Source: Clostridia bacterium (GTDB lineage Bacteria > Bacillota > Clostridia > TANB77 > CAG-465). From it: a stretch of DNA of 64,000 nucleotides. The stretch's first letter is position 1; the number at the start of each line of letters is the position of its first letter. This document shows, piece after piece, positions 9,577 through 46,591 of the stretch. The notes beneath the pieces are model-generated. The model was given only the letters and a program-made list of their open reading frames with translations. It ran no database searches and was not told where the DNA came from. Location of the stretch: positions 13,489-77,488 of the forward strand of contig JAQUGQ010000007.1 of the NCBI GenBank assembly GCA_028684095.1, given 5' to 3'. A program made the position numbers and the translations under genes.

Positions 9577-9679
9577 TATATTTATTCTACTATTTATTCT
9601 ACTATTTATATTTATTTAATTGATTAATGTAACAAATACAAATAAATATAAATATTATATAACTAGGAGGTACCTAAAA

Positions 9680-10489
9680 ATGGAAAAAACAAATAATAAC
9701 GGAGATTTACATAGAGATGTTATGGTGATGCCTGATTCTTATATGCCTATTAGACCACTTACAATTGGAATGAAAGCTCCTGACTTTATTGCAGACACTA
9801 CTTTTGGCACTGCTAAAATGTCAGATTACACTGGAAAATGGCTTGTATTCTTTTCACATCCAGGTGACTTTACACCTGTATGTACAACAGAATTTATTTC
9901 GTTTGCTAAGTATTACCCAGAGTTTGCAAGAAGAAACACTAGCTTACTTGGATTATCAATAGATAGCAATGCATCGCATTTAGCATGGGTATACAACATA
10001 TACAAGATGACTGGTATACAAATACCTTTTCCAGTAGTTGCTGATAGAAATATGGCAATAGCTAAGATGTATGGAATGATGCCAACTGATCAAAACATTA
10101 CTCAAACAGTAAGAAGTGTTTTCATAATAGACCCAGATCAGAAAATTAGAGCTATATTACAATATCCTTTGACAAACGGTAGAAATATTCCAGAAATATT
10201 AAGACTATTAGATGCACTACAAATCACTGATAGTGAGAATGTTGTAACACCTGCAAATTGGATGCCAGGTCAACCAGTAATAGTTCCATATCCTAAAACA
10301 TATGATGAGCTATTAGAAAGAGTTCAAAATCCAATGGGATATAACTGTATGGATTGGTATTTATGTTATAAAAAAGGTTTTGAATCTATGCAGCCAATGA
10401 TGGACTCACAACCTATGTTTACTAATACAATAGGCAATATGATGCCACAATCAAACATGAATATGTGTCAAAATTGCAATATGAATTAA
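9680..10489 (+). CDS. peroxiredoxin (Prx6/1-Cys-like AhpC/TSA family) with Met/Asn/Gln-rich C-terminal tail
   Basis: Start moved to ATG 9680 behind AGGAGG (9665-9670). FFSHPGDFTPVCTTEF is the peroxidatic-Cys motif. YNCMDWYLC lies near the usual C-terminus, followed by about 37 extra residues. Confidence 0.85.
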   Translation: MEKTNNNGDLHRDVMVMPDSYMPIRPLTIGMKAPDFIADTTFGTAKMSDYTGKWLVFFSHPGDFTPVCTTEFISFAKYYPEFARRNTSLLGLSIDSNASHLAWVYNIYKMTGIQIPFPVVADRNMAIAKMYGMMPTDQNITQTVRSVFIIDPDQKIRAILQYPLTNGRNIPEILRLLDALQITDSENVVTPANWMPGQPVIVPYPKTYDELLERVQNPMGYNCMDWYLCYKKGFESMQPMMDSQPMFTNTIGNMMPQSNMNMCQNCNMN

Positions 10490-17896: not shown

Positions 17897-18709
17897 TTAC
17901 ATATTTGCTGCAGATTTTTCTTCTAATCTTAATTTATCTGCTATCATAGCTATAAACTCGGAATTTGTTGGTTTTCCTTTATTTGAATTAACTGTATAAC
18001 CAAATATTTTATCATGTACTTCTATTTGTCCTCTATTCCATGCTACTTCAATAGCATGTCTTATAGCTCTTTCTACCCTAGAAGGTGTTGTATCAAACAT
18101 ATGTGATAAATTTGGATATAAAACTTTTGTAACAGCATTAATAACATCCTCATTTTTAACAGTCATCATTATTGCTTCTCTTACATATTGGTATCCTTTT
18201 ATATGAGCAGGTACACCAACATCATGTATTGCATTTGTAACTCTTACTTCTAAACTTGTATTTAATCTTCTTGTATCTAATACATTATCTCTAGAACTAT
18301 ATCTGCTACTCACAACAGTTGTTGCATTATCAGGTGACATTAAATCTCTAACTCTTTCAGTTAAGCTCTTCATATCAAATGGTTTTACAACATAATATGT
18401 TGCTCCCAATGATATCGCTTTTTGAGTTATTCTTTCTTGACCTATTGAAGACATTACAATTACTAAAGGCATTTTAAATTCACACTCTTTAGACATTTCT
18501 TCTAAAACAGTTAACCCATCCTTTTCTGGCATTATTATATCTAATAATAATACATCCGGATTCATTTCTTTCATAAGCTTCATAGCATTTGTTCCATCAT
18601 ATGCATATGTAACAATTTCCATGTCTTCTTGAATATTAATATAGTCTTTAAGAAGCATTACAAACTCCTTATTATCATCCAGCACCATAACTTTTTTCTT
18701 TTGAACCAT
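17897..18709 (-). CDS. spo0A: sporulation master regulator Spo0A
   Basis: Start moved to ATG 18709 (SD GGGAGG). Receiver domain has [14 protein letters not shown] and KPF. C-terminal Spo0A-specific DNA-binding domain has [18 protein letters not shown] and [18 protein letters not shown]. Confidence 0.95.
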
Positions 18710-18804
18710 TTTATACCTCCCTACCTTATCTCTTAGTACATTATAATTATACACATTTTAATGTACTAAATCAAGGTTTTTCCTAAAAATTTACAATCGA
18801 GTTA

Positions 18805-18811
18805 TGTCGAA
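18805..18811 (+). promoter_or_regulatory. candidate Spo0A box upstream of spo0A
   Basis: Exact TGTCGAA about 96 nt upstream of the spo0A start codon. Confidence 0.35.
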
Positions 18812-18968
18812 ATACCTCATAACATCATATTTGCACCATACTTCTCGATTTTTTATACATTTTTGTTGTCGTTATCATTTATCTTGTCCTAAAATCATAT
18901 ACTTTCATATATAATAAACCATAAAACAAAAAAATTATATTATTTTGTACAAATATTACATCAATAAC

Positions 18969-19424
18969 TTATTTTATATTAATATTTTCAAATTCAATAC
19001 TTTTTTTAGAACTAAATTTAGTATTTAGAGCTATTATGGAATTATAAGGTATCATTAAATCTCTTACTCTGTCAATAAATTTTTTTATATTAAATGGTTT
19101 TATAAAATAATACATTGCTCCTAATGATATTGCATTTTGAATTATTTTAACGTGTGATATTGAAGACATTATAAACACCAACGGCATCTTAAATTCAAGC
19201 TCTTTAGATATTTCCTTTAATATCGTTAGCCCACTTTTTTCGGGCATTACTACATCTAATAATAATACATCTGGATTAGTTTTTTTTATCAGATTTATTG
19301 CATTTGTACCATCATATGCATAAGTAACAACCTCCATATCTTTTTGAGTATTTATATAATTTTTAAGAAGTATTACAAACTCCCTATTATCATCTAATAT
19401 CATGATCTTTTTCTTTTGATTCAT
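18969..19424 (-). CDS. receiver-domain-only paralogue of Spo0A (no DNA-binding domain)
   Basis: Start moved to ATG 19424 (SD GGAGG). 151 aa, with 88/128 identical residues to the Spo0A receiver in a hand-made gap-free alignment. DD, LLLDVVMPEKSG, MSS and KPF are retained. Confidence 0.85.
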   Translation of the reverse strand: MNQKKKIMILDDNREFVILLKNYINTQKDMEVVTYAYDGTNAINLIKKTNPDVLLLDVVMPEKSGLTILKEISKELEFKMPLVFIMSSISHVKIIQNAISLGAMYYFIKPFNIKKFIDRVRDLMIPYNSIIALNTKFSSKKSIEFENINIK

Positions 19425-19532
19425 ACTTACCTCCACACCTTATCTCTTAAATATTGCAACTCCTTATAATAAAATTGAAAAATTGCTTCTTTGCAAAGTT
19501 CATAAAATAGTTTTTTTAAATAAGTAATAACT

Positions 19533-20390
19533 CTACATTCCAGGCATACCTTCTCTATATTGTCCTCTTGTTTGCACTCCACCTATACCATCAATGCCTT
19601 CCCTTGTATTGGAAATTATGCTTGCAAGAGGAATAAATTTATCTACTGGTGTATATGCAATTGATTCAGCAACTATAAGCGGATCAAGCATATCTATAAG
19701 AACTCTTTTTGGAGCTGAAGCAAAATTTGCACCTGCAGATATTATTGCTTCATAATAGCTTTGACATGCACCTGCAAATATTACTAAATTATCTAAATTG
19801 TGCTCATATCTTCTGGCTTCTAGAACACCTTGTATAAAATATTTAGAATTTTTATAATTATTAATATTATACATATCATTTCTTTTTCTTAAGAAGGAAT
19901 CATGACCGGTAAGAATTAAAATATTGGGTCTTATTTTTTGAAGTAATGAATATACTTGTTTATATTGTTCTTCTTCACTAATATTGTATACATATGCAGT
20001 AAGACCCATCCTTTTATAATTTTCTCTACACTTTTCTGTATATTCAGCATCTCCATCTATATGTAATATTACACCTGGTTTTTTAAATATTTTTTCTTTT
20101 ACATATATATTTGGATTATCAACTATTGTATCCCTTATATTAAATTTTTTATTAATATTATAATAACATCTATCCATTCTTTTTCTTCTTGAGTCATCTA
20201 TTTTCTTCATTCTGTCTTTAGCTTCTGTTTCTGTTATATGTACCAAATCTGACATAGGTGAATCTGCAACAATTCTAACTGTAAGACCAGCTAAATCAAC
20301 AATATTTTTGTTTATACCTATTATTTTAAATAATATATCTAAATTATATGATTTTCTTGCAACTACATCACCTATTTTAAATGTATCCAT
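19533..20390 (-). CDS. yabG: sporulation-specific protease YabG
   Basis: 285 aa. Motifs FKIGDVVARKSYNLDILFKIIGI, HIDGDAEY, LILTGHD, VIFAGACQS and GANFASAP are collinear with B. subtilis YabG. Confidence 0.85.
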   Translation of the reverse strand: MDTFKIGDVVARKSYNLDILFKIIGINKNIVDLAGLTVRIVADSPMSDLVHITETEAKDRMKKIDDSRRKRMDRCYYNINKKFNIRDTIVDNPNIYVKEKIFKKPGVILHIDGDAEYTEKCRENYKRMGLTAYVYNISEEEQYKQVYSLLQKIRPNILILTGHDSFLRKRNDMYNINNYKNSKYFIQGVLEARRYEHNLDNLVIFAGACQSYYEAIISAGANFASAPKRVLIDMLDPLIVAESIAYTPVDKFIPLASIISNTREGIDGIGGVQTRGQYREGMPGM

Positions 20391-20446
20391 AAAGTAATCA
20401 CCTCCTAGGATATCTTATGATAAATTAAACTAGAAAGTGATTTTAT

Positions 20447-21159: not shown

Positions 21160-22068
21160 TTATTCCTCCATTTTATTTAATTTTATATACATATAGAATA
21201 TAAATATATACGATAATATATTTATATTTAAAACCAAGTTTCCTATAAATGTTTTTATCAATATAGTATAATATTCGTTATTCGTTAGAATAAAACCAAA
21301 TAATATATACATATTTAGTAGTATCAATACTATTAATACTAATTTAGAGGAAAATATATTTTGTTTTTCTTTTTCTTTTTGAAAATTAGTTTTCATTTGT
21401 ATTTTAGAAAATTTATCCAATAAGTTTCCAAAATCCCCACCATATATATAACAAAATTGAAGTAATGTTATAAATTGATTTATTTTTTTAATATTTACAC
21501 TTTTCTTTAAAGTTTCAAATGCATCATATATTTTGATCCCCTTCTGCACTGAAATATTAAACTTATTTATATATGTCTTTATCGGTTCTTCAACATTTGC
21601 TCTTCGAAATGCTTCTATTATATCATTATTCACATCTGTGTAATTTTTGAGACTTATAATATAATTTGGAAACATTCTTAATATTTTATTTTTTCTATAA
21701 TATGAAAAATACCTAATAATAAAATATGGGAGAAATAACATAAATGTAGAAAAAATTAGTGATGATGAAAATAAATGTAAGAAATTAAATGTAATTATAA
21801 ATGTTATTATAAAAATAACTATAGATAAAATTAAAATTGTTAATATAGAAATAATTTTGATATTACTGATTTTAAAAGATAAATTTGTTTCATCTATTAT
21901 ATATGATATTTTTTTTATAAATGATAGTTCTCTTATTTTATATATCATTTCACTCTTTAAATCAAGCATTATGTTTTTATATTTTTTTTGATTATAGAAA
22001 CTATCACAGATATATTGAATTATATAGTATATCGTAATTATCCCAATAATAGTAATAAGCATTTTCAT
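21160..22068 (-). CDS. polytopic membrane protein, TadB/TadC/GspF-like platform protein
   Basis: 302 aa. One N-terminal TM, TM pair, a ~110-aa cytoplasmic helical domain (FPNYIISLKNY...GGDFGNLLDKFSKIQ), then C-terminal TMs. This is T2SS-F-like topology directly after the CpaF-like ATPase. Confidence 0.55.
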   Translation of the reverse strand: MKMLITIIGIITIYYIIQYICDSFYNQKKYKNIMLDLKSEMIYKIRELSFIKKISYIIDETNLSFKISNIKIISILTILILSIVIFIITFIITFNFLHLFSSSLIFSTFMLFLPYFIIRYFSYYRKNKILRMFPNYIISLKNYTDVNNDIIEAFRRANVEEPIKTYINKFNISVQKGIKIYDAFETLKKSVNIKKINQFITLLQFCYIYGGDFGNLLDKFSKIQMKTNFQKEKEKQNIFSSKLVLIVLILLNMYILFGFILTNNEYYTILIKTFIGNLVLNINILSYIFIFYMYIKLNKMEE

Positions 22069-22073
22069 TGTTG

Positions 22074-23303
22074 TTATACACCTCCTTTACTTTTATAATA
22101 GTATAAATTTTCAAAATATTTACTTTCAATTTTTGTGTATGTTAATATAATTTTAATTATTGTTTTTTGTTTTTGTCTATCATAATAAACTTCTGCTATT
22201 TCATTTACTTTATAATCTTTCATAAATATTATATAATTAATACTACTCGAAAGCATCTGATTTACAAATTCTTCTTTATATGATTGTGCTTTTATATCTC
22301 TTTTTATTAGTGTTGTAAGTCTATCTAATGTATTATACACACCATCAGAATGTACTGTGGTAAGACCCATATGTCCTGTTGCTATACTGTCAAAGAATAC
22401 TAAAGCTTCAGCCCCTTTTAACTCACCTATAATTATTACATCATTAGACATAACTAAGCTATGCTTCATTAACTTATCTAAAGTAATTTTCTTGGATTCC
22501 TCTCTGTTTTCTAAAATTTCTCTTTGAATTACATTTTTACCTTCTATAAATAGTTCCATAGTTTCCTCGTTTGTTGTTATAGCAATATTATCTGAAATTT
22601 TATTTATCAAAGCCCTAAGTAAAGTTGTTTTTCCACTTCCGCCTTTACCACAAATCACAATATTTTTTTGTTTAATTATAAAATTATTTAGTAAAATATA
22701 TATATCAAAATTTATCATTTCATCTATTAAAAATAATCTTTCTAAATTAACATTTGTATCATTTCTATGTATACGAATAACTAAACTAGGTGAAAATACA
22801 TTAACGGGAGGTAATCCAGCTTCAATTCTTAAATTATATTTTTTATCACTTACAATTATCATTGGAACATCAAAGTTAATATTTTTATTATTTTTTAGTA
22901 TACAATATCTAACATAATCGTAAAATTCTGTTTCTGATTCAAATGTAGAGTTTGTTTTTTTCCATTTACCTCTAGATTTAATATATATATCATTATATTT
23001 TACAACTCTAATATCACTTATATCCTTATTATCTATATACATTTGTAATATGTCATAACCAAACATTTTATTAAATATATTATTGATAACTTTTTGTATA
23101 TTTTCTGTATCATTCAAACTATACTTGTTATATAAATATTTTTCTATTACATTTATCAAAACTTCTTTATCCTCATTTTTTAAATTTTCTAAGTAATTAT
23201 CAATTAAATATTTCTGTAAATCTTTAATATTTATATTTTCAAGGTTTTTATTTGTAATATTTTCTTCTTGAGATTTAGTGGTTTTAAATGGATTTATTAT
23301 CAT
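22074..23303 (-). CDS. TadA/CpaF/VirB11-family secretion ATPase
   Basis: 409 aa. Walker A ICGKGGSGKTTLL, Asp box/Walker B VIIIGELKGAEA, His box ATGHMGLTTVHS. Confidence 0.85.
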   Translation of the reverse strand: MIINPFKTTKSQEENITNKNLENINIKDLQKYLIDNYLENLKNEDKEVLINVIEKYLYNKYSLNDTENIQKVINNIFNKMFGYDILQMYIDNKDISDIRVVKYNDIYIKSRGKWKKTNSTFESETEFYDYVRYCILKNNKNINFDVPMIIVSDKKYNLRIEAGLPPVNVFSPSLVIRIHRNDTNVNLERLFLIDEMINFDIYILLNNFIIKQKNIVICGKGGSGKTTLLRALINKISDNIAITTNEETMELFIEGKNVIQREILENREESKKITLDKLMKHSLVMSNDVIIIGELKGAEALVFFDSIATGHMGLTTVHSDGVYNTLDRLTTLIKRDIKAQSYKEEFVNQMLSSSINYIIFMKDYKVNEIAEVYYDRQKQKTIIKIILTYTKIESKYFENLYYYKSKGGV

Positions 23304-24546
23304 ATCTCATTTTCACTTCCTTTGTAATAAACATAGATATAATCTTCTTTTTAATGTTGTTTTTATCACGATTATTTAAATAATTTACACCCAAGCTTTT
23401 AATTATTTCTTTTTCATTTAATTTAGAATTTATATTACTTACTGCTCCATTTATATATCCTTCTATATTAAATTCAAAATCTACTATCGATACAATTTTA
23501 TAACCTTCCAACAAATTTGTAATTTGAGAAATATCTAATGAATTCTTTTGTTTTTTATTTATTATTATGAATATATTATTTCTGGAAATTCCCCAAAGCT
23601 TTGTCATAAGTTCTAAATATTTAATACCTTGTCTTAAACTTATGTAATTAGGATTGATAACAAAAAATATGGTTGAAGAAATGTTTAAAGTATATCTCAC
23701 AACATCTATAAATGGAGATGATGGCAAATCAACTATAACATAATCATATTTGTTAATTGTACTGAAATATATTTTTTTATAATAATCAGTATTCAACTTA
23801 TTTTGACATTCAAAAATACTAGAATTATTAGTCATATACCATAATTTTTTGTTATTTTTATCCTTATACATATATTTATTTACAATATCATTTATATCTC
23901 TTTTATTGTCTATATCTTCTATCATCTGTGATAATATATTTCCTGATCCATTTAGATTATTATATATATCTATGCAAGGATTTTGTATATCCATATCAAG
24001 CATAGCAACTTTTATTTTTAATTTATTACATAGCGATTTTGATAATAATCCTGAAATATATGATTTTCCTGAACCACTTGTCCCATATATAGATATAAAT
24101 TGCTTTGGTACAACCGTGGCCTCAATTTTTTTATCTTCAGTTTTAGCGTTTGGTAAATTATTAATATTATTTTTATATATAACTTTATCATTACTATTAA
24201 TACTTTCTACTATATCAGTTATTTCTATTTCTTTTCCTTCTATAACATTAAATATTTGATTAGCAAATAAAAACTCTTTATATTGTTCGTCCAAATATTC
24301 TGTCAAAAGTATAATTTTAACATTATCATTGGCCAATCGTATCTGCTTTATGTATAATTCTTTTGCTAAATTTCCATTTAAACTATCTTTTGTAATCAAT
24401 ATTATACTCATATTGGTTTCTCTTTGTTTACTTAAATATTCAATAACACCTTCCATATATGATATATCATGTGGATATACTTCATTAATATATATTTCAT
24501 CTATTTTTTGTTTAATATATTCATTATCTATTGCTAAAACTATCAA
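23284..24546 (-). CDS. TadZ/CpaE-like ATPase (receiver-like N-domain + MinD/ParA-type domain)
   Basis: 420 aa. TTG start behind AGGGGGAA. N-terminal ~120 aa is receiver-like. Deviant Walker A SIYGTSGSGKSYISG, plus YDYVIVDLP. Confidence 0.7.
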   Translation of the reverse strand: MIVLAIDNEYIKQKIDEIYINEVYPHDISYMEGVIEYLSKQRETNMSIILITKDSLNGNLAKELYIKQIRLANDNVKIILLTEYLDEQYKEFLFANQIFNVIEGKEIEITDIVESINSNDKVIYKNNINNLPNAKTEDKKIEATVVPKQFISIYGTSGSGKSYISGLLSKSLCNKLKIKVAMLDMDIQNPCIDIYNNLNGSGNILSQMIEDIDNKRDINDIVNKYMYKDKNNKKLWYMTNNSSIFECQNKLNTDYYKKIYFSTINKYDYVIVDLPSSPFIDVVRYTLNISSTIFFVINPNYISLRQGIKYLELMTKLWGISRNNIFIIINKKQKNSLDISQITNLLEGYKIVSIVDFEFNIEGYINGAVSNINSKLNEKEIIKSLGVNYLNNRDKNNIKKKIISMFITKEVKMRYDNKSI

Positions 24547-26291
24547 TTTTCATTCCCCCTTATTAATTTATCTTCATAATCATTTGACTTTACATTTAAA
24601 TTTATTACATTACTTTGAAATAACATAAGCATGCTCCCTTTATTTAATCTTGTAATTTCACTTAACTCATATGTATTTAATATACCAGTTTTAGCTAATA
24701 TTTCCGAATCTGTATATTCCATTTTAAAAAACATTTTAATAAAAGAATTATTAATTATACTTTTACCATAAGTCCCCAAATCTTTACTAAAAAAATCACA
24801 TACATCTTGGGTTATAGTTACTATGCCTGCGTTTAATTTACGTATCGTTTTAAATAGCATAAATATTTGCTGAGCAGAGAATGAATTATCATAAATAAAT
24901 TTCCATACTTCATCAATATATATTATTGCTTTTTCATTTGAATTTGTCATTCTTTTAATAATTTCATCAAGAATAATTTTAAATAATATATTAGTCATCT
25001 TTACATTTAATTTATTTAAGTTAAACACTATTAATTTATTACTTAAATCTATAGTTGTTCTTCTATTTAAAAACATATAGTCTATTAACATCTGTTCAAA
25101 ATTCATAATCAGCTTTTTAAAACCTTTATTATTTATAGTTGTGTTAGATTTTAAATTTTTGTATACATCTTCTAATATTGGCATATATGTTGAATCTTTA
25201 ATAACTTTATTTAGATATATTTTGTTGCTACTTGATACTGTATACATATTAATTACATCATCATTGATTCCCTTATCTAAATATGATTTTTTAATTGCCA
25301 TAATTATATCTGTTTTATAATTCACTTCAATATTTAATATTTTATCCAAAAATTCATATACTATATTTATTTTCTTGTAAAGAAAATTTTTTTCTGTTAT
25401 ATCTATTTCATCTATATCTAATATATTTAAAAATGTATTACATTCATTATTAAAATTAATATATTCTCCACCAACCTCAGAAGCAATATTTATATATTCT
25501 CCTTCTGGATCAAATATATATTGTTTTATATTTATAATATATTGCCTTAATATAAGTAATTTAACAAAATATGATTTACCAGAACCACTACTTCCAAATA
25601 TACAAATATTTGAATTAGTATATTTATTACTAAAAATATCTATATTACATATTTTTTTATTATAACTTGTATATCCAAATATAACACCATTTTTATCAAA
25701 AACTGTATCAGTGTAAAACGGGAAAATATTTACAACATTACTTGTAGTCATATTTGAATAACATGATTTAGTAATACTTTCATCTAAAAAATTTAATGGT
25801 AGAGTTGATAAATATCCTTGCATATGTCTAAAATTAAGTGCAATTGATATTAGCATTTTTGAATATAATATACTCCTAAACTTTTTTGTAGTATATAAAA
25901 TGTCATTTTTATTATTACTTTTAATAGATATATATGTATATGTATTATAAACTTGTTCATTATTAATTTGAATTTCATATCTTAACTTTTTAGCATCTGA
26001 TGTTAACTTATCTAAAATATCTACATCAATTTGATTATTGTTAATTGTATTTCTTTCTGACTTAGAATTCGATATATTATATGTAAGTTCTTTTAAAACT
26101 TTAATAGTGTCTAGTTTTTGTATAAATATACTCATATCAAAATGAATATCTTTAGGTAAACTATTCATTAATTCTAAAAATTTCATTCTTTTTGGATAGT
26201 TTATAATACATATTGTAGCAATATATTTTCCATCAATGTTTATATATTTAAAATTTGTGTTATCTATAAATCCAGGATAAAAATTCAACAT
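24543..26291 (-). CDS. VirB4/TrsE/TraE-type conjugation ATPase, C-terminal (ATPase) part
   Basis: 582 aa. Motifs CIFGSSGSGKSYFVKLL, IFDPEGEY, AIIYIDEVWKF and GIVTITQDV. Confidence 0.8.
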   Translation of the reverse strand: MLNFYPGFIDNTNFKYINIDGKYIATICIINYPKRMKFLELMNSLPKDIHFDMSIFIQKLDTIKVLKELTYNISNSKSERNTINNNQIDVDILDKLTSDAKKLRYEIQINNEQVYNTYTYISIKSNNKNDILYTTKKFRSILYSKMLISIALNFRHMQGYLSTLPLNFLDESITKSCYSNMTTSNVVNIFPFYTDTVFDKNGVIFGYTSYNKKICNIDIFSNKYTNSNICIFGSSGSGKSYFVKLLILRQYIINIKQYIFDPEGEYINIASEVGGEYINFNNECNTFLNILDIDEIDITEKNFLYKKINIVYEFLDKILNIEVNYKTDIIMAIKKSYLDKGINDDVINMYTVSSSNKIYLNKVIKDSTYMPILEDVYKNLKSNTTINNKGFKKLIMNFEQMLIDYMFLNRRTTIDLSNKLIVFNLNKLNVKMTNILFKIILDEIIKRMTNSNEKAIIYIDEVWKFIYDNSFSAQQIFMLFKTIRKLNAGIVTITQDVCDFFSKDLGTYGKSIINNSFIKMFFKMEYTDSEILAKTGILNTYELSEITRLNKGSMLMLFQSNVINLNVKSNDYEDKLIRGNEN

Positions 26292-26839
26292 ATATTGTCA
26301 ACCTTATTTGATTTTGAATATAAGAAATTATCCAATTTTACTTTACCTTCTATTTTTTCTATAAACACACCTATTTTACACAAATTATATATATTTTTAG
26401 ATATTTCTTCTATGCTATTCCCATCAATTACTGTTAAGACAATATAATAATTATTTATGTATATATTATTTTCATTTAAAGATTTTTCAAGTTCACTTTT
26501 ATATTTTTGGACTAACTTGTTTTTATTAATATTTTTATCATCTAAAGTAATATTATCAAAATAACTATTAATATTAACTTCTGTATTTTCAATATATATT
26601 TGAAAATCACAATTCATACTTCTTAAAAATTCAGTATACAAAGTTATTATATTTTTACTTATTGATTCAGTTATATTAAGTATTGTAATAGGTTCAACTT
26701 TATATATATGTATTTGCTTCAAAATACTAAGTCTTCTAATCAATATACAATTATCATTTATGTCTATAACATCATATACTTTAGATATATCATCATATAT
26801 ACTGTTTTTCATAAATTTGTTTTTTATTAAATTAAGCAT
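26285..26839 (-). CDS. protein resembling the N-terminal domain of VirB4-type ATPases (split gene)
   Basis: 184 aa. Its stop overlaps the next start as ATGTTGA (26285-26291). The pattern ILIRRLSILKQIHIYKVEPITILN...EFLRSMNCDFQIYIEN resembles Gram-positive VirB4 N-termini. 184 + 582 = 766 aa, close to full VirB4 length. Confidence 0.55.
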   Translation of the reverse strand: MLNLIKNKFMKNSIYDDISKVYDVIDINDNCILIRRLSILKQIHIYKVEPITILNITESISKNIITLYTEFLRSMNCDFQIYIENTEVNINSYFDNITLDDKNINKNKLVQKYKSELEKSLNENNIYINNYYIVLTVIDGNSIEEISKNIYNLCKIGVFIEKIEGKVKLDNFLYSKSNKVDNIC

Positions 26840-28788: not shown

Positions 28789-30282
28789 TTATTTCGTATT
28801 TAGAACCCTTTGTTCTTGTGTCATTACAGCTAGTGCTCTGACATTATCTATATTTAAACATAATTTATCTGATATTCTAGTTCCTAAATTTACATCAGTC
28901 TTATAGAATAATGCAGTCATTCTATATTGCAATTTTAAATCAGCTAACTTTAAACTGCCACATATATTATTAATAAGTATTTCTTTCTGTTTATCATTCA
29001 TTACTCTTCTATATAATTCACCTGGTTGTTCGAAATCTATATCTGATGATGGATATGTATGTCTCTGTATGAAGCCAGAAACATCAAAATCTGGTGTTCT
29101 ATATTTTTCATCAGTATAAACATCCTCGTAACTATTTGGAAAATAGTTAAGTTTAGTATTACCTTGTGAAGTGTCTGCCATATCACCATCTTTTTGATAT
29201 GTTGTCATAGGACTTTTAGGTTTATTTACAGCAAGTTCGTTTACATTTGCCCCAATTCTATGTCTATGTGCATCTGGATATGCCATAATTCTACCTTGTA
29301 GCAATTTATCAGGTGATGGCCCTATTCCATTTACAAAATGTGATGGAGAGAATGCTACTTGTTCTATATCAGTATAGAAATTCTGTGGATTTCTATTAAG
29401 TACCATTCTTCCAAGTGGAATAAGTGGATAGTCTTTATGATACCATACTTTAGTAGGATCAAAAGGATCAAATCTATATTTTTTTGCTTCTTCAATACTC
29501 ATTATTTGTACATATACTTTCCATGATGGATAGTTACCACATTTTATGTTGTCATATAAGTCACTCATTGAACTATCTGGATTTGTGCCTGATAATTTAG
29601 TAGCTTCTTCATCAGTCCAATTTTCAATACCTTGTTCAGTCTTGAAATGATATTTTACCCAACAATATTTGTTTTTTTCATTATACCACATAAATGTATT
29701 TGTTCCAAATCCGTGCATATGTCTAAATCCTTTAGGTGTTCCTCTATCTGAAAATAGTATTATAACTTGATGCATAGATTCTGGTGTAAGTGAAAAAAAA
29801 TCCCACACCATATTAGGGTTTTTAAGATTGTTTTTTGGATCTCTTTTTTGTGTATGTATAAAATCAGGAAATTTCATAGCATCACGTATAAAGAAAACTG
29901 GTGTATTATTGCCTACTAAATCATAGTTACCATCTTCTGTATAGAATTTAAGTGCAAAACCCCTTGGATCTCTAGCGCTATCTGATGAACCTTTTTCGCC
30001 ACCAACTGTTGAAAATCTAGCTATCATTTCAGTTTTTTTGCCTACATTTGATAAAAATTTTGCACACGTGTATTTACTTAAATCATTTGTAACTTCAAAA
30101 TATCCAAATGCCCCTGATCCTTTTGCATGTACTACTCTTTCTGGTATTCTCTCCCTATTAAAATGTGCTAGTTTATTCATCATATAAGTATCTTCTATTA
30201 CTGTTATACCAGGTATACCTGTAGATAAAGAAAAATTATCGTTTGATATTGCATTTCCTAACTCATCTGTTAATTTTCTCAT
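28789..30282 (-). CDS. katA: monofunctional heme catalase
   Basis: 497 aa. Motifs FNRERIPERVVHAKGSGAFGYFEVT, RFSTVGGEKGS and DPRGFALKF, with a tyrosine-ligand region. Confidence 0.95.
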   Translation of the reverse strand: MRKLTDELGNAISNDNFSLSTGIPGITVIEDTYMMNKLAHFNRERIPERVVHAKGSGAFGYFEVTNDLSKYTCAKFLSNVGKKTEMIARFSTVGGEKGSSDSARDPRGFALKFYTEDGNYDLVGNNTPVFFIRDAMKFPDFIHTQKRDPKNNLKNPNMVWDFFSLTPESMHQVIILFSDRGTPKGFRHMHGFGTNTFMWYNEKNKYCWVKYHFKTEQGIENWTDEEATKLSGTNPDSSMSDLYDNIKCGNYPSWKVYVQIMSIEEAKKYRFDPFDPTKVWYHKDYPLIPLGRMVLNRNPQNFYTDIEQVAFSPSHFVNGIGPSPDKLLQGRIMAYPDAHRHRIGANVNELAVNKPKSPMTTYQKDGDMADTSQGNTKLNYFPNSYEDVYTDEKYRTPDFDVSGFIQRHTYPSSDIDFEQPGELYRRVMNDKQKEILINNICGSLKLADLKLQYRMTALFYKTDVNLGTRISDKLCLNIDNVRALAVMTQEQRVLNTK

Positions 30283-38374: not shown

Positions 38375-39259
38375 TTACATCCTTATTTTTAATTTAGAAA
38401 GTAAACTCTCTAATCCTTCTTCATCATTATATTCAATAACAAGTTTTTGATGAGATTTAGTTGTCTCTAATTTTACTTTGTAACCAAAGTAATCTTTTAA
38501 CTTATTTTCAATTTTTTGATAATATATATTCTTAGGTTGTTTTTTTTCTTTATTTCTAGTATAATCTTCAGATCCATAAATTAATTTTTCTACATCTCTT
38601 ACTGTTAACTTTCTTTCTACTATTTTTTCTACTATTTCTAATTGTTTATTATAATCTTCTATTACAAGTAATGCTCTAGCATGTCCTTCTACAATCTTTC
38701 CGTCCATTAAATAATCCAATATTTTATCTTGTAATTTAAGAAGTCTCATTATATTTGAAACAGTAGACACATTCTTACCAGTTATTTTAGCAACTTCAGA
38801 TTGTGAATATCCATCAATATCCATTAATTCTTTGATTGCTTTTGCTATTTCAACTATATTTAAATCTTCTCTTTGTATATTTTCAATTAATGCTACTTGC
38901 TTTTTCTTAGTATCTGTATAATCTTTTATTATTGCTGGAATTGCTTTAAGTCCTGCCATCTTAGCAGCTCTCCATCTTCTTTCACCAGCAACTATAGTAA
39001 ATCCTGTATCATCTTTTACAACTAATATAGGTTGTAATACACCATTTTCTTTTATCGAATCAGCGAGTTCTTCTAATTTTTCTTTATCAAAAACTTTTCT
39101 TGGTTGATTGAGCATAGGTTCAACTTCTGTAATATTAAGTTCAACTACTTTATCTAACTCTTTATGCACTTTTTCCTTAGATGCATGTGTTACCTTTTCT
39201 AATTCTAAGCCATCTTCTCCAAAGAAAACATTTAAACCTCTTCCTAAACCTTTTGACAT
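38375..39259 (-). CDS. parB: chromosome partitioning protein ParB/Spo0J
   Basis: 294 aa. Motifs GLGRGLNVFF, NQPRKVFDKEKLEELADSIKENGVLQPILV and AGERRWRAAKMAG. Confidence 0.93.
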   Translation of the reverse strand: MSKGLGRGLNVFFGEDGLELEKVTHASKEKVHKELDKVVELNITEVEPMLNQPRKVFDKEKLEELADSIKENGVLQPILVVKDDTGFTIVAGERRWRAAKMAGLKAIPAIIKDYTDTKKKQVALIENIQREDLNIVEIAKAIKELMDIDGYSQSEVAKITGKNVSTVSNIMRLLKLQDKILDYLMDGKIVEGHARALLVIEDYNKQLEIVEKIVERKLTVRDVEKLIYGSEDYTRNKEKKQPKNIYYQKIENKLKDYFGYKVKLETTKSHQKLVIEYNDEEGLESLLSKLKIRM

Positions 39260-39260
39260 A

Positions 39261-40034
39261 TTATTTTACCCCCTTTTCATTAAGAGCGAGTAACTCTTTA
39301 GCTAATTTTTTATATGTTTCTGCACCTTTACAATCTTTGTCATACAATGTAATTGGAAGTCCATGACTCGGAGCTTCACTTAATCTTATATTTCTAGGTA
39401 TAATTGTTTGAAAAACTTTATTACCGAAATATTTTTCAACTTCTATAGCAACTTCACTAGATAAATTAGTTCTTGCATCAAACATTGTAAGTATAACACC
39501 TTCTACAATTAATTCTTGGTTTAAATGCATTTGTACTAGTTTGATTGTATTAATAAGTTGTCCTAATCCTTCTAATGCATAGTATTCACATTGAATTGGT
39601 ACAAGAACACTATCTGAAGCAGTAAAAGCATTTAAAGTTATAAGTCCAAGTGATGGGGGACAGTCTATTATAACATAATCATACTTGTCCTTAACACTAT
39701 CTATCGCTTTTTTTAATCTATTTTCTCTAGAAACCATAGAAACTAGTTCTATTTCTGCTCCTGCTAAATTAATATTAGCTGGGCATACATCTAATTTTTT
39801 TATCATAGTTCCTTGTATAGTTTCATCCATTGGTATACTATCTACAAGTACATTGTACACTGATTTATCTTGATGTGCTTCAACACCAATTCCACTAGTT
39901 GCATTACCTTGTGGATCTATATCTACAAGTAACACACGTTTTCCTTTTTCAGCTATACAGGCACTTAGATTTACGGCTGTTGTTGTCTTTCCAACTCCGC
40001 CTTTCTGATTAGCTATCGATATAACTTTTGCCAT
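39261..40034 (-). CDS. parA: chromosome partitioning ATPase ParA/Soj
   Basis: Start moved to ATG 40034 (SD GAGGTG). MAKVISIANQKGGVGKTTTAVNL is the deviant Walker A. Confidence 0.93.
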   Translation of the reverse strand: MAKVISIANQKGGVGKTTTAVNLSACIAEKGKRVLLVDIDPQGNATSGIGVEAHQDKSVYNVLVDSIPMDETIQGTMIKKLDVCPANINLAGAEIELVSMVSRENRLKKAIDSVKDKYDYVIIDCPPSLGLITLNAFTASDSVLVPIQCEYYALEGLGQLINTIKLVQMHLNQELIVEGVILTMFDARTNLSSEVAIEVEKYFGNKVFQTIIPRNIRLSEAPSHGLPITLYDKDCKGAETYKKLAKELLALNEKGVK

Positions 40035-40177
40035 TAGGGTCACCTCTCGTATATTATAATACATTTAGAAACAAAAAAAAAGAGTAATGACAAAATTTGT
40101 TGCTTTTTAAGTCATTTTCTCTTTAATTTATTTATAATTATCTTAAAACATCACCTTAAAATCAAAACATATGTTCT

Positions 40178-40924
40178 TTATAATGGTAACTTTTTAATTT
40201 TATCATAGCTTCTTGGATAAATTTTTGGAGTTCTATCAACTTTTTGTACTTCAAGAATACATCTTTTAAATATTTCTACATTATCTTTTTCATTAACTTC
40301 TAAATCATATTCATATTTATTTAATATTTTAATATTAAGCTTATTAAATGCAGTTCTAGATAAACTAATTTCTTGTTGAATATTATCACCTTTCATATAT
40401 AGACATTTTCCTTTTATTGTAACATATGGAGATGTACATTCACAAAGCACACTTAAAGATGCAACTGCTCTAGCAACTACTATATCATACTTTTCTCTAT
40501 ATATAATGTCGTTTGCCTTATCTTCTGCTCTACCATGTACTATAGTAATATTTTTTAAGTTTAATTCTTTTATCACTTCTTTTAAGAAAAGTAATCTTTT
40601 ATTTAATGAATCTAATAATGTTATATTTACTTTACCATCAAAAAATATTCCTATAACGACTCCAGGAAAACCTGCACCAGTTCCAACATCAATTATATTT
40701 TCATATTCTTTTATATATTTTGTACATTCTAAACTATCTATAAAATGTTTTACTATTATTTGATATTCATTTGTAATCGATGTTAAATTTATCTTTTCAT
40801 TCCATTCTATAAGCATATTCTTATATATTTGTAATTTTTCTAGTTTGTCATCATTAAGCTCAAAACCGTACTTTTTTGCTTCTAAATACAAATTTTCCTT
40901 AAATGCAATCTTCTCTTCTTTCAT
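40178..40924 (-). CDS. rsmG: 16S rRNA m7G527 methyltransferase RsmG (GidB)
   Basis: 248 aa. DVGTGAGFPGVV is the SAM motif. Conserved position after mnmG. Confidence 0.9.
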   Translation of the reverse strand: MKEEKIAFKENLYLEAKKYGFELNDDKLEKLQIYKNMLIEWNEKINLTSITNEYQIIVKHFIDSLECTKYIKEYENIIDVGTGAGFPGVVIGIFFDGKVNITLLDSLNKRLLFLKEVIKELNLKNITIVHGRAEDKANDIIYREKYDIVVARAVASLSVLCECTSPYVTIKGKCLYMKGDNIQQEISLSRTAFNKLNIKILNKYEYDLEVNEKDNVEIFKRCILEVQKVDRTPKIYPRSYDKIKKLPL

Positions 40925-40936
40925 ATGAAAACTCTC

Positions 40937-42829
40937 CTATCTTCTTTTTATTTGACTTAAATAAATTAAAAGTACTGATATATCAGCTGGGGATACCCCA
41001 GATATTCTAGATGCTTGCCCAACTGACAGTGGTTTCTGTTTATCAAGTTTTTGCCTTGCTTCTAAACATAATCCTTTGATTTTAGAATAATTAATATCTT
41101 GTGACAACTTTTTATTTTCAAGTTTCTTAAATTCTTCTATTTGAGAAAATTGTAATTTAATATATCCTTCATATTTTAAGTGTATTTCTACCTGTTCTGT
41201 AACATCTTTACTTAAATTTGGTTTTTCTTTGTCCAAAGCCATCAAATTATCGTATGATATTTCACTTCTTTTAATCAAATCACTTGCTCTATGACACACA
41301 TCTATCTCACTACTACCAAGTTTTCTAAATAATTCATTAGTTTCTTCGTTCGGATATATGTTTAATTTTTTAAGTCTTTCAATTTCACATTCTATCATTT
41401 CTCTTTTGATTTTAAATTTATTATATATTTTCTGTGAAATAAGACCTATATTATATCCTTTTTCTCTCAAACGTAAATCTGCATTATCTTGCCTTAAAGT
41501 AAGCCTATACTCAGCTCTAGACGTCATCATTCTATATGGTTCATTAGTCCCTTTTGTTACTAAATCATCTATTAATACTCCTATATATCCCTCAGATCTG
41601 TCTATTACAAAACTACCTTTATTATCTATCTTAAGACTAGCATTAATACCTGCCATAAGGCCTTGTACTGCAGCTTCTTCATAACCAGAACTTCCATTTA
41701 CTTGTCCTGCAAAAAACAAACCTTCTATACTTTTATACTCAAGATTTAAATTTAAGTTTATTGAATCAATTGCATCATATTCAATAGCATATGCCGGTCT
41801 CATTAGTGTTGCATTTTCTAGCCCTTGGACACTTCTATACATAGCTATTTGTATTTCTTCTGGCATAGATGAAGACATACCTTGTATGTACATTTCCGAT
41901 GTATCTTCCCCTAATGGTTCAATAAATATTTGATGTCTGTCTCTATCTCTAAATCTAACCACTTTGTCTTCTATAGATGGACAGTATCTAGGTCCTATAC
42001 CTTCTATTTGACCGCTATATAGTGGTGATCTATGAATATTGTCTAATATTATTTTATGTGTATTTTCATTGGTATATGTAAGATAACAGTTGACTTGATT
42101 TTTATTAATCATGTCAATATTATTAACATTTTCATATGAAAATAGACTAATCTCATTATCACCTTTTTGTATTTCCATTTTAGATAAATCCATTCTATTT
42201 ATATTTATTCTTGAAGGTGTACCAGTTTTAAATCTTCTAAGCTCAACACCAATATCTATTAAATTTTGTGATAAATCATTAGCAGGAAAAACCCCATCTG
42301 GACCACTTTCATAGGATATTTCTCCTATTATTATCTTACCTTTTAAATACGTTCCTGTCGCAACAATTATAGTCTTTGTATTGTATATTGCACCTATCAT
42401 TGTTTTTACTCCAATAGCTTTATCTTTTTTATCATTTGTTATTATTTCTACTATTTCAGCTTGATAAATATCTAAATTAGCTTGATTTTCTAATGTTTTT
42501 TTCATTTCAATATGATATTTTTTTCTATCTGACTGCATTCTAAGAGAATGAACTGCTGGACCTTTAGATTTATTTAACATTTTTGATTGTATAAATGTTT
42601 TATCAGCATTTTTTCCCATTTCTCCACCCAATGCATCTAATTCTTTCACTAAATGACCTTTGGATGTTCCACCAATACTCGGATTACATGGCATATTAGC
42701 TAATGTATCCATATTTATAATAAACATAGCGGTTTTTTTACCTAATCTACTTGTTGCCAATGCTGCTTCGCATCCTGCATGTCCACCACCTATTACAACT
42801 ACATCATATTCTCCTGCATTATAACTCAT
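40937..42829 (-). CDS. mnmG: tRNA uridine-5-carboxymethylaminomethyl modification enzyme MnmG (GidA)
   Basis: 630 aa. [16 protein letters not shown] is the FAD motif, plus [16 protein letters not shown]. Confidence 0.97.
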
Positions 42830-42837
42830 ATTTTTCC

Positions 42838-44208
42838 CTACTTTCCTAAACAGAACTTTGTAAATATTTTATCTACTATATCTTGTGATACATCGTTTCC
42901 TATTATTTCTCCTAATTTTTTTGCACTTTCTTTAATTTGAATAGATATTATGTCTACTGGCATATCATTTATCACATCTTTTTTAGCATTCTTTAAATAT
43001 TCAATAGATTTTTCTAATAGTTTCTTATGTCTTTCATTAACTATCATAACTTCATTTACACTATTTAAATTATCATCAAAGAACATTGATATAATTTTTC
43101 TTTTTAATTCATCTATGCCTTTATTTTCATAAACAGAAATGTTAATAGTATCATTTATATTATTTTCACTTAATTTAAGCGTAAAGGTATCAAAAATCGA
43201 TTTTATATACTTGTCCATCTTATTTATCACAACTATATATTTTATTCCTTTATTTTTGATTTTAGAGATCATATCTATATCTTCTTTTGAAAGATTATCA
43301 TCTGCATTTAAAATATATATAACCAAATCTACCTCGTCTATTTTTTTTATACTTTTTGAAACACCTATTTTTTCTATTATGTCCTCTGTGTCTCTAATAC
43401 CTGCAGTATCTGAAATATTTAAAATAATATCACCTATGTTTACTGTTTCTTCTACTATATCTCTAGTTGTACCCGCAATATCAGTTACAATTACTCTTTC
43501 ATACTTAGCTAAATTATTTAAAAGTGATGATTTGCCTACATTAGGTCTACCTAATATAGCAACATTTATTCCATTTTTTATATATTTTCCCTCTTCATAT
43601 GAATCTAATAGCTTAGTTATCTCAAATATTTCTAATTCAAGTAAATTTAAAACATGAATATTATCAACTTCAACATTATCGTATTCTGGGTAATCAATAC
43701 TAACTTCTACTTGAGCAAGTATTTCAATTAACTTTTCTCTTAAACTTACAATCTTTTTGAATAACTGACCATCTAATTGTTCAATTGCTATTCTTGCTTC
43801 AGTTTTTGTCTTAGCATTTATTAAATCTATAATGCCCTCCGCTTCAGATAAATCCATTTTTCCATTTAAAAATGCTCTTTTAGAAAATTCTCCAGGAGTT
43901 GCTATTTCTGCTCCATTTCTAACAACTAAATTTAATATTTCCTTTGTTATATATGATCCTCCATGACAATTTATTTCACAAATATCTTCACCTGTAAAAG
44001 AATTTGGAGCTTTAAAATATGATATCAAAACATTATCAACAAATGATCCATTATCAATTAATTTTCCATATATAATACTATTTGGTGATAATTTCGAATA
44101 ATTATTAAATAAATTTTTGATAATATTTAGACTATTTTCACCACTAAGTCTAATTATGTTTATTCCACTTGTTCCAAGTGATGTTCCTATTGCTGTTATT
44201 GTTGACAT
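42838..44208 (-). CDS. mnmE: tRNA modification GTPase MnmE (TrmE)
   Basis: 456 aa. G1 [12 protein letters not shown] and G3 DTAGIR. C-terminal FCLGK. Confidence 0.97.
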
Positions 44209-44278
44209 AATATCTTTCCTTTCCTATTAAAAAACCAGCTTTCATGCTGATTTTTATTAATTCATCTTTAATTTTATG

Positions 44279-44938
44279 TTAATTATTAAGTTTTTTCTTT
44301 ATAACAAGTAATCTTCTTGGCTCTTCTCCATAACTTTCTGTTATAACATCATTTCTAGAAGATAATTCTTGATGAACAATCATTCTTTCATATGCAGACA
44401 TCGGCTCTAATTTAATTGATTTGCTAAATTTATTAACATTATCTGCCATCTTATTAGCATAAATTTTTAATTTATCTTCTTTTTCTTTTTTATAATCATT
44501 TATTTCAACAAAAACTTTAGAATATTCTTCTTCTCCTTTTTGTAACATTGCATTAAGTATTGATTGTATAGCTTCTATAGTTTTACCTCTATATCCAATT
44601 AAATGTTTTGGATCATCAAGTTCCAATTTAACAATAACTTTTTTACTATCTCCTGTACAAGTATGTTTTATATTACTTTCTCCAGTTATTTTAAATATAT
44701 CACTTAATACATTGTCTATTTTCTCTTGAGTTGCTATTAAAACATCTTCTGTTACTTTTTTATCAACAATTAATTTTACTTTTGCTAACTTTTGTGAAAG
44801 CATACCAAGTATCCCACCTGATTTAGGTTCTTCTAATATCTCAATAATAACATCATCTCTTGCAACTTTAAGTTCTTCTAAACCTTTTCTAACCGCTTCT
44901 TCTATTGTTTTACCTACTTGTTCAGTTGTTCTTTTCAT
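44279..44938 (-). CDS. jag: RNA-binding protein Jag/KhpB (Jag-N, KH, R3H)
   Basis: 219 aa. KH-like GYRGKTIEAIQ. R3H-like C-terminus MSAYERMIVHQEL...ESYGEEPRR. Confidence 0.88.
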   Translation of the reverse strand: MKRTTEQVGKTIEEAVRKGLEELKVARDDVIIEILEEPKSGGILGMLSQKLAKVKLIVDKKVTEDVLIATQEKIDNVLSDIFKITGESNIKHTCTGDSKKVIVKLELDDPKHLIGYRGKTIEAIQSILNAMLQKGEEEYSKVFVEINDYKKEKEDKLKIYANKMADNVNKFSKSIKLEPMSAYERMIVHQELSSRNDVITESYGEEPRRLLVIKKKLNN

Positions 44939-45786
44939 TACTTTTTTCCTCCCTTATCTGAATCTAATAAAAAATTAACATCATCTTTTTTGTGTTCTTC
45001 TATTAATTTAGATATAACAGACTGCTGAGCTATTTGATACATACTACTTATCAACCAATATATTCCTAATGCTAAAGGCATTGTGTAAGCTATAAATCCA
45101 GAAAGAATAGGCATCATAAGGCTCATAGATTTTTGCATTTGCTTTTGTTCATCTGTCATTTCAGTACTATTTTGCATTTGTTTTATTTGATAAATTGAAA
45201 ATAATACACTAAGAATAGGTATTATAAGTGATAATGGATTTGTATTGTTTTCATCCTTTGAAGAAAACACATCTGAAGGTTTATGCCCTAAATTAAGTCC
45301 AATAAAATTCATATCTATTAGTTTATTATTATTAGCAATTACTATTTCAGAAGTATTCATTTCTGTTTTTGAAACCTCTTCTTTATTTAATAATTGTTTA
45401 GTATATATTTCAATTTCATCTTTTGGAAGTTGTATTACGTATGTTAAGGGTTGATTAACTATATAAAACATTCCAAGTATAAGTGGTAATTGTATTAAAA
45501 TCGGTAAGCAACCACCTAATGGATTAATTTTATGTTCACTGTATAATTTAGTTATTTCTTCACCTTGTTTTGTTTTATCATTTTTGTATTTTTTTATTAT
45601 TTCATCATATTTTGGCTTTACCTTCTGCATTTCTTTACTAGATTTCATCTGCTTTAAAGAAAGAGGAAATAATAAAGTTTTTGCTAGTATTGTGAAAAGT
45701 ATTATAGATAGTGCATAATTATCTTGTGTTAAATTATATATAACTCTAATAATAGCACCAAATATGTTGGCTATCATTTCTATCAT
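44938..45786 (-). CDS. yidC: membrane protein insertase YidC/SpoIIIJ
   Basis: 282 aa. Motifs SIILFTILAKTLLFPLSLKQMKS, NPLGGCLPILIQLP and ALGIYW. Confidence 0.93.
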   Translation of the reverse strand: MIEMIANIFGAIIRVIYNLTQDNYALSIILFTILAKTLLFPLSLKQMKSSKEMQKVKPKYDEIIKKYKNDKTKQGEEITKLYSEHKINPLGGCLPILIQLPLILGMFYIVNQPLTYVIQLPKDEIEIYTKQLLNKEEVSKTEMNTSEIVIANNNKLIDMNFIGLNLGHKPSDVFSSKDENNTNPLSLIIPILSVLFSIYQIKQMQNSTEMTDEQKQMQKSMSLMMPILSGFIAYTMPLALGIYWLISSMYQIAQQSVISKLIEEHKKDDVNFLLDSDKGGKK

Positions 45787-45810
45787 AAATTTTCTCCTAT
45801 ATTTTAAAGG

Positions 45811-46053: not shown

Positions 46054-46055
46054 AA

Positions 46056-46400: not shown

Positions 46401-46456
46401 TTATTCACCTCACCTAATGCAAATAAGTGGATATGAAAACATACCCACTTACATTT

Positions 46457-46591
46457 TTAAGCACATAGTACTTTTCTTCCTTTTGCTCTTCTTCTTTTTA
46501 ATATTGCTCTTCCAGCAGCTGTCTTCATTCTTTTTCTAAAGCCATGAACTTTTGCTCTTTGTATTGTTTTTGGATTAAATGTTGTATTCAC
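46457..46591 (-). CDS. rpmH: 50S ribosomal protein L34
   Basis: Below ORF-track cutoff. GTG start behind GGAGGTGCC. Translation is [44 protein letters not shown]. Confidence 0.93.

Follow-up and report, generated by a model that had tools for sequence, protein, structure and literature searches.

A receiver-only paralogue of Spo0A encoded in tandem with spo0A in an uncultured clade of Clostridia

The window analysed in this study is a 64-kb stretch of DNA from a Clostridia bacterium (contig JAQUGQ010000007.1). On its minus strand, yabG, a gene for a 151-aa response regulator (RR), and spo0A were located in this order. RR is a receiver-only paralogue of Spo0A, the universal switch for endospore formation, and comparison of the two genes indicates that RR is a recent tandem duplicate of the promoter, receiver, and linker of spo0A that has been truncated.

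The RR gene and its derivation from spo0A

The open reading frame (ORF) of RR begins with an ATG at 19424-19422, preceded by a GGAGG ribosome-binding site at 19430-19434. Only PF00072 Response_reg was matched in Pfam (residues 7-120; 78.6 bits against a gathering cut-off of 30.2), and no match to the Spo0A_C DNA-binding domain (PF08769) was obtained with the RR protein, confirming the response regulator without a DNA-binding domain that the initial annotation had described. AlphaFold2 predicted a canonical (βα)5 receiver with a predicted local distance difference test (pLDDT) score above 90 for residues 1-126 and below 50 for the tail. The closest solved structure to this model was the phosphorylated Spo0A N-domain (1QMP; template modelling score 0.92, root mean square deviation 1.1 Å). 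With PF00072, the (βα)5 fold, and no output domain, RR falls within the definition of a single-domain (CheY-like) response regulator. The best NCBIfam match was TIGR02875 spore_0_A at 128.6 bits (model positions 2-141 of 262), below the equivalog cut-off of 200 bits, whereas the neighbouring Spo0A passes it at 358 bits.

BLASTP aligned RR to the adjacent Spo0A without gaps, with 90 of 143 residues identical (E = 2e-70). Over residues 1-126, the receiver domain (REC), the identity was 69% (87 of 126), and the 88 identical residues in 128 that had been counted by hand earlier proved exact. At the DNA level, identity between RR and spo0A runs from the leader through the receiver to about 17 linker codons and then ends. 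RR residues 127-143 were collinear with the Spo0A linker at both the protein and the DNA level; hence, of the tail first described as 20 aa unrelated to Spo0A, only the last ~8 residues are new. The RR linker also resembles that of the nearest Spo0As. A part of the leader was duplicated as well, as had been proposed: the window has exactly two copies of the 13-mer ACCTTATCTCTTA (18723-18735 and 19437-19449), against a chance expectation of 0.01. The gap to spo0A is 259 nt when measured to the true start codon, an ATG at 18709, rather than the 214 nt obtained previously from the upstream GTG of a mechanically called ORF. It is nevertheless too short for an effector domain, and blastn and tblastn detected no vestige of Spo0A_C in this spacer downstream of the RR stop codon.

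The spo0A promoter, TTGATT-17-TATAAT, was the best promoter-like site on the minus strand (10/12). This promoter and the 0A box 30 nt upstream of it were present in all relatives, the box being retained as TTTCGACA upstream of every spo0A, and the proximal part of the RR-spo0A spacer was conserved in all relatives with or without RR. The spacer upstream of RR (92-108 nt in the RR-bearing lineages) aligned to the spo0A promoter and leader, with the -35 and -10 elements degraded and the 0A box lost. RR and spo0A are probably not co-regulated, because the promoter copy of RR is decayed and lacks a 0A box. Consensus scans found no sigma-70-like promoter upstream of RR and no terminator-like hairpin after yabG or around RR, both of which are weak evidence in DNA of 25% GC; in the outgroup L003, a clear hairpin with a U-tract follows yabG. 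An AC-17 nt-CATAAGATA element conserved in six genomes precedes the yabG start codon by 20 nt and, judged by eye, resembles a sigma-K promoter. As far as the sequence can tell, read-through from this sigma-K-like yabG promoter into RR is possible. yabG keeps the same position in every related locus.

Table 1 Features of the yabG-RR-spo0A region of the window.
Feature	Coordinates	Strand	Evidence or remark
RR coding sequence, 151 aa	18969..19424	-	ORF list and sequence; Pfam PF00072 only
RR receiver domain proper, residues 1-126	19047..19424	-	AlphaFold2 fold; identity to Spo0A REC
RR tail, residues 127-151 and stop codon, linker-derived, disordered	18969..19046	-	Collinearity with Spo0A linker; pLDDT <50
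yabG-RR spacer, 108 nt	19425..19532	-	Decayed copy of spo0A promoter/leader with conserved ribosome-binding site
yabG, sporulation peptidase U57	19533..20390	-	PF05582, E = 2.8e-104; directly upstream of RR
Candidate sigma-K-like promoter of yabG	20411..20438	-	Conserved in alignment of six genomes
RR-spo0A spacer, 259 nt	18710..18968	-	Proximal ~140 nt are the ancestral spo0A control region
spo0A sigma-A-type promoter, TTGATT-17 nt-TATAAT, with TGTG before TATAAT	18746..18774	-	Promoter-like scan; conservation
0A box TGTCGAA upstream of spo0A promoter	18805..18811	+	Pattern search
spo0A, 270 aa, parent gene	17897..18709	-	PF00072 and PF08769 Spo0A_C

Distribution, loss, and selection

A protein identical to RR was found in the NCBI metagenome-assembled genome GCA_028704735.1 ('Clostridia bacterium'), where it is annotated as 'response regulator'. 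The distribution search proposed in the initial annotation revealed intact receiver-only orthologues of 126-140 aa in the slot between yabG and spo0A of three further metagenomic lineages: L001 (a JGI contig; 140 aa, 76% identical to RR), L002 (a sediment contig; 126 aa, 67% identical), and L065 (a 1-kb ENA contig; 126 aa counted from the aligned start). The four RR lineages differ by 24-39% in RR protein sequence, and the tail is not conserved: L001 has one of 14 aa, and L002 and L065 have none. When 1.84 billion cluster representatives were searched with a profile, the family formed a single cluster (P0004, 242 bits), the next match being at 159 bits; the family is considered rare because only this one cluster was obtained. 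A scan of genome contigs gave no further RRs, the matches being one syntenic relative without RR and unrelated Spo0As, and a scan of metagenome contigs with the RR alignment gave distant receivers only, among the matches listed.

RR was absent from four close syntenic relatives (L003, L059-L061, L062, and L064), whose Spo0As are 80-91% identical and whose flanks are unchanged, consisting of tad-like genes, a hypothetical gene, yabG, spo0A, a membrane protein gene, and an SNase gene. A full-length second spo0A at this position, which would have pointed to a recent truncation, was present in the RR slot of no relative examined. In L064 (positions 1-2753), yabG is broken into two pieces (100 and 52 aa) beside three serine-recombinase genes (Resolvase/Recombinase/Zn_ribbon_recom), which looks like an intervening element inserted in this mother-cell sporulation gene.

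The P0015 lineage (L072-L078), whose Spo0A is 96% identical, also lacks RR. Its yabG-spo0A interval contains two small membrane-anchored ORFs. In L074 (1295-2375; also in L072, L073, and L076), they encode two paralogous-looking proteins (150 and 149 aa) that carry a hydrophobic helix at the N terminus and gave no Pfam or NCBIfam match. Directly upstream of the real spo0A promoter, this lineage carries the spo0A promoter and leader a second time, in degenerate form and without a gene of their own, as a 0A box TTTCAACA, a -35 element TTGCTT, an identical TGTGTATAAT, and the leader without a ribosome-binding site. This copy is probably a relic of the loss of RR. The nucleotide distance of yabG plus spo0A was 0.084-0.103 between the P0015 lineage and the RR-bearing group, 0.057-0.074 within that group, and 0.14-0.155 to the next relatives. 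Because of these distances, the P0015 lineage is placed as the sister of the RR-bearing group; the distances alone were used, as rerooting left the yabG plus spo0A tree without usable bootstrap values. The short P0017 contig does not extend far enough to show what precedes its spo0A. On these comparisons, the yabG-spo0A slot seems to be a hot spot of gene gain and loss.

In a protein neighbour-joining tree with Spo0A receivers, an analysis that had also been suggested beforehand, the four RRs formed one clade with 100% bootstrap support beside the local Spo0A clade. In this tree, the RRs branch off basally to the local Spo0As, a placement that we attribute to the long branch of RR. A later origin is favoured because of the similarity of the linkers, the synonymous divergence (dS), and the pattern of presence and absence; an older duplication followed by several losses may be an alternative history. 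In the simplest history, a single tandem duplication would have copied the unit [spo0A promoter – receiver – linker]; the P0015 lineage would have lost its coding part, and in the RR-bearing lineages the promoter copy upstream would have become shorter. Recent gene conversion between RR and spo0A was ruled out, as there was no genome-specific excess similarity of an RR to its own Spo0A.

The RR ORF is open in all four lineages, and its ribosome-binding site GGAGGTAA is invariant. Pairwise Nei-Gojobori ratios of non-synonymous to synonymous substitution rates (dN/dS, omega) among the RRs were 0.17-0.36 at dS values of 0.54-0.88, compared with 0.03-0.07 for the Spo0A receivers and 0.02-0.05 for yabG in the same genomes. 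Substitutions per branch were then counted by parsimony on an assumed tree. The RR stem carried 29 non-synonymous and 8 synonymous changes (omega about 0.86) versus 5 and 8 on the sister Spo0A stem (Fisher p = 0.014), and the terminal RR branches carried 83 and 66 (omega about 0.30; p = 3e-12 against neutrality). These counts indicate that RR first changed in a burst and then came under constraint, rather than decaying steadily, and that it is a real gene kept by purifying selection. Amino-acid change in RR was 4-10 times faster than in Spo0A REC. The GC content was 23.5% in RR, 29.6% in the REC part of spo0A, and 25.1% in the window; the low value of RR fits a weaker codon constraint, which probably explains its higher dS.

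Some of these features would also be expected if RR were a slowly decaying, non-functional remnant of a partial duplication. Its promoter copy is decayed, its GC content is drifting from the level of spo0A REC to the genomic background, its protein changes several times faster than Spo0A REC, its catalytic aspartates are eroding and its tail is progressively trimmed in the orthologues, and the gene was lost in the sister lineage. However, the ORFs have remained open with an invariant ribosome-binding site in four lineages at the above dS values, omega on the terminal branches departs strongly from neutrality, and 42 of the 126 receiver positions are invariant over all RRs and Spo0As, D57, S87, and K109 among them. 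The charge shift described below is, furthermore, consistent among the RRs and not random. A decaying leftover is thus the most improbable of the explanations considered in this study.

Phospho-acceptor pocket, charge, and fixed substitutions

In the window RR, the phospho-acceptor pocket is complete, with D11-D12, D57 (LLLDVVMPEK), S87-S88, and K109-P-F. The claim that every pocket residue is kept therefore stands for this protein but not for its orthologues. D57, S87, and K109 are invariant in all four RRs, whereas the Mg2+-binding pair is DD in the window RR only, being ND in L001, DN in L065, and NN in L002; Pro61 is replaced by Tyr or His in two RRs. RR numbering is that of B. subtilis and C. 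difficile Spo0A plus one. According to a mutagenesis study of C. difficile Spo0A, D10A, D11A, and H61A each cut sporulation, and P60A destabilises the protein. A phosphate sink, as suggested for RR in the initial annotation, requires efficient phosphorylation and dephosphorylation. With three of the four orthologues short of the Mg2+-binding aspartates, and with D10A or D11A crippling C. difficile Spo0A, a sink cannot be the activity of the whole family, but it would be possible for the window RR.

The window RR has the full D-D-D-S-K quintet, and it could be considered a positive or buffering relay protein like Spo0F, taking phosphate from kinases and either passing it on by reversible transfer, on a kinase or an unrecognised Spo0B-like protein, or storing it for Spo0A. 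Spo0F is likewise a stand-alone receiver in the context of the Spo0A pathway. The earlier premise that clostridia lack Spo0F and Spo0B was over-general, since, according to a review, both are now predicted in many Clostridia. Other Clostridia, furthermore, have Spo0A-like receiver-only proteins with an intact pocket beside PAS histidine kinases. However, the Mg2+ ligands are gone in most of the orthologues, and RR is very young and dispensable in close relatives. No phosphotransferase gene lies nearby, and no Spo0B candidate was found among the annotated neighbours in the window. Among solved structures, RR is nearer to Spo0A REC (97.6 bits, E = 5.5e-27) than to the Spo0F chains (53-55 bits, E about 1e-13). 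RR is not regarded as a Spo0F orthologue, because these scores favour Spo0A REC and RR groups with the local Spo0A clade. Taken together, a relay role appears highly unlikely.

The proteins beside PAS kinases constitute a second receiver-only family of ~130 aa (P0191, P0011, and P0284-P0296; L067/L068 5001-7485, L069 5001-7772, and L070 2518-5289). Their genes are arranged tail-to-tail, with an overlap of a few bases, with a gene for a PAS-HisKA-HATPase kinase of 700-800 aa and do not lie beside spo0A; one member bears the JGI label 'stage 0 sporulation protein A'. Like RR, they consist of a receiver only, have spore_0_A as the best NCBIfam match (121.7 bits for P0287), and contain a YYFIKP(F/C)N motif. 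Unlike RR, to which they are about 40% identical, they have a mostly acidic isoelectric point (pI) of 4.6-5.4 (9.2 in one member) and an intact DD pair (ED in two members), and they are older and more diverse. Their D, S, and K residues are intact as well. These proteins may be clostridial Spo0F-like relay proteins. The RR-specific change of YYVVKPFD to YYFIKPFN matches the motif of this family (YYFIKPFN/CN), which may reflect convergence in receivers without an effector domain to contact. Stand-alone Spo0A-like receivers are therefore not unique to the RR clade; the tandem, charge-reversed, pocket-eroding form beside spo0A is.

The RR receivers were all basic (pI 8.9-9.3, net charge +3 to +6), whereas all seven Spo0A receivers were acidic (pI 4.8-5.0, net charge -3 to -6); the pair in the window had pI values of 9.25 and 4.79, respectively. 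Such complementary charge would suit a dominant-negative partner of Spo0A, in which a basic RR binds the acidic Spo0A receiver. Heterodimers with one DNA-binding domain, or blocked homodimerisation of Spo0A~P, would then poison transcription activation, a mode of action likened to that of Id-type or 'microProtein' inhibitors. The fixed RR changes concentrate on the α4-β5-α5 side, which is a common dimer interface of receivers. This mechanism needs no phosphorylation of RR, which fits the loss of the DD pair. However, the residues reported as required for dimerisation are those of the phospho-pocket, the very residues that are degenerating in the orthologues, and the charge argument is only suggestive. 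We regard a dominant-negative action as rather unlikely.

Helix α1 (EFV.LLK.YIN), the main kinase-docking element of a receiver, showed a single fixed change in the RRs, D22N. This is one of 11 positions at which every RR departs from an otherwise invariant Spo0A residue: D22N, D64N/S, I84F, G90S, Q91H/D/N, T95I, V107F, V108I, D112N, S115K/N, and L116F/I. RR D22 and Q91 correspond to E21 and Q90 in B. subtilis and C. difficile Spo0A numbering. According to the mutagenesis study, E21A in C. difficile Spo0A reduces sporulation, and Q90A (C. difficile) and Q90R (B. subtilis) increase it, the latter through altered kinase use. Fixed changes at such partner-specificity positions (D22, Q91, and the β5-α5 loop), the directional charge reversal, and the stem burst followed by constraint would be in line with a neofunctionalised single-domain regulator of the CheY, DivK, or CpdR type, insulated from the partners of Spo0A and acting on another target. 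The insulation of new paralogues by changes in specificity residues is given as an established theme in the literature on such systems. On the other hand, helix α1 is almost unaltered, no partner gene travels with RR (the flanks being the same with or without it), and the loss of RR in the sister lineage suggests that it serves no independent pathway. Neofunctionalisation of this kind is considered unlikely.

Proposed role of RR and comparison with known systems

RR shares with Spo0A (TIGR02875) an ungapped receiver of 69% identity, the 1QMP fold, and a similar leader and ribosome-binding site. Unlike RR, Spo0A has Spo0A_C, an acidic REC, a 0A box with an intact promoter, and a REC omega of 0.03-0.07 as against about 0.3. 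We tentatively propose, with a probability of roughly 0.4, that RR is a decoy that competes with Spo0A for its kinases or phosphatases and that the window copy could also act as a sink. As a functional stand-alone receiver that keeps helix α1 together with D57, S87, and K109 but has no DNA-binding domain, RR would compete for the upstream partners of Spo0A, namely the activating histidine kinases and/or phosphatases. This competition would lower or delay the accumulation of Spo0A~P, making RR a threshold-setting modulator of sporulation, and the window RR, with its intact pocket, could additionally drain phosphate. Because three of the four orthologues have lost Mg2+-binding aspartates, the activity common to the family is most likely binding, as a pseudo-receiver decoy, and not phosphate turnover. 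The origin, truncation, fold, residue pattern, selection, and distribution of RR are shown by the analyses above; we infer its partners, the negative sign of its effect, and the timing of its expression.

The main reason for preferring a decoy lies in an analogy: RR retains helix α1 and the switch residues, and catalysis appears dispensable, as in the non-phosphorylated proteins Osp and FixT. Osp of Rhodobacter sphaeroides and FixT are receiver-like proteins that lack the acidic pair, are not phosphorylated, bind the transmitter domain of a kinase, and inhibit it directly (PMC9430884). Like the RRs of L002 and L065, they have a single receiver fold in which the acceptor Asp is kept and one or more Mg2+-binding acidic residues are lost (PMC9430884). 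Loss of both acidic residues, as in Osp and FixT, was seen fully in L002 (NN) and partly in L001 (ND) and L065 (DN), but not in the window RR. Unlike RR, Osp has also lost the conserved Lys and is not derived from an output regulator under its control. A related logic is known from plants, in which receiver-only ARRs compete with the DNA-binding B-type ARRs, and from phosphate-sink receivers (PMC4214558; PMC6370222). As proposed for RR, a receiver without an output is there set against a paralogue with a receiver and a DNA-binding domain, both using the same phosphodonor, and a threshold results (PMC4214558; PMC6370222). That RR may share its phosphodonor with Spo0A is indicated only indirectly, by helix α1 with D22N as its one fixed change. 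The distribution of RR, that is, its restriction to a narrow clade, its absence in four syntenic relatives, and its apparent loss in the sister lineage, also suggests the behaviour of an accessory modulator.

Several observations weigh against a decoy. First, the promoter copy of RR is decayed, and its expression may not coincide with the activation of Spo0A. Second, 14 of the 26 RR stem substitutions fall within residues 84-116 (binomial p = 0.003), which comprise β4, the β4-α4 loop, α4, β5, the β5-α5 loop, and the start of α5. These stem changes, Q91 among them, and the shift from acidic to basic could have moved RR away from the partners of Spo0A. Third, the kinases of the organism fall outside the 64-kb window. 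RR is in any case not a passive copy, as the burst on one face and the charge reversal fit a new binding specificity as well as they fit a simple decoy. The putative sigma-K-type read-through from yabG raises a further alternative, in which RR would inhibit Spo0A signalling directly, by binding the Spo0A receiver or the kinases, and would switch Spo0A off in the late mother cell instead of setting the threshold for entry; this appears quite unlikely.

With respect to previous descriptions, full-length spo0A paralogues are reported for some Clostridiales genomes in a preprint by Galperin et al. (10.1101/2022.02.25.481979). They resemble RR in being extra spo0A-derived genes but are counted as full-length spo0A, and the receiver-only form is unmentioned in the accessible part of that preprint. 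The initial annotation was aware of no such gene, and indeed neither a receiver-only copy of Spo0A nor a decoy or sink is mentioned in the searchable reviews of clostridial sporulation initiation and surveys. A literature search on inhibition by the isolated Spo0A N-domain and on PDB entry 9PHZ gave nothing usable.

Elsewhere in the window, the region 38375-53130 is a replication-origin neighbourhood with parB, parA, gidB, gidA, and trmE on the minus strand. From this gene order, dnaA is presumed to be the first of the plus-strand ORFs that begin at 47145. Two perfect 0A boxes (46900-46906 and 47068-47074) lie in the gap just upstream of 47145, and spo0A and RR are located ~28 kb from this gap. 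Upstream of yabG, minus-strand genes at 21160-26839 encode T2SSF-like, T2SSE-like (CpaF/TadA-type), ParA/CbiA-like, and TraG/HerA-like P-loop ATPase proteins. This cluster looks like a tad-like pilus or secretion locus, and relatives share at least its proximal T2SSE and T2SSF genes. A peroxiredoxin (AhpC/1-Cys Prx; 9620-10489) and a full-length haem catalase (615 bits; 28789-30282) are also encoded in this apparently anaerobic Clostridia genome.

Sequence comparison thus suggests that RR is a modulator of the single-domain or pseudo-receiver kind that descends from the master regulator itself, its function being what we infer from its relatives and residues. The weight of the finding is limited by the narrow, uncultured clade to which it belongs. 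Nevertheless, the locus documents a path from birth to constraint, with a promoter-inclusive duplication, truncation, rapid substitution on one face, reversal of charge, and catalytic erosion, together with dated outgroups and a relic of loss. The setting of the threshold in clostridia that phosphorylate Spo0A directly is still poorly understood. If the proposed role is true, RR would be a new type of input to the Spo0A switch, a competitor made from the regulator itself, and would provide a ready-made tool to damp Spo0A signalling.

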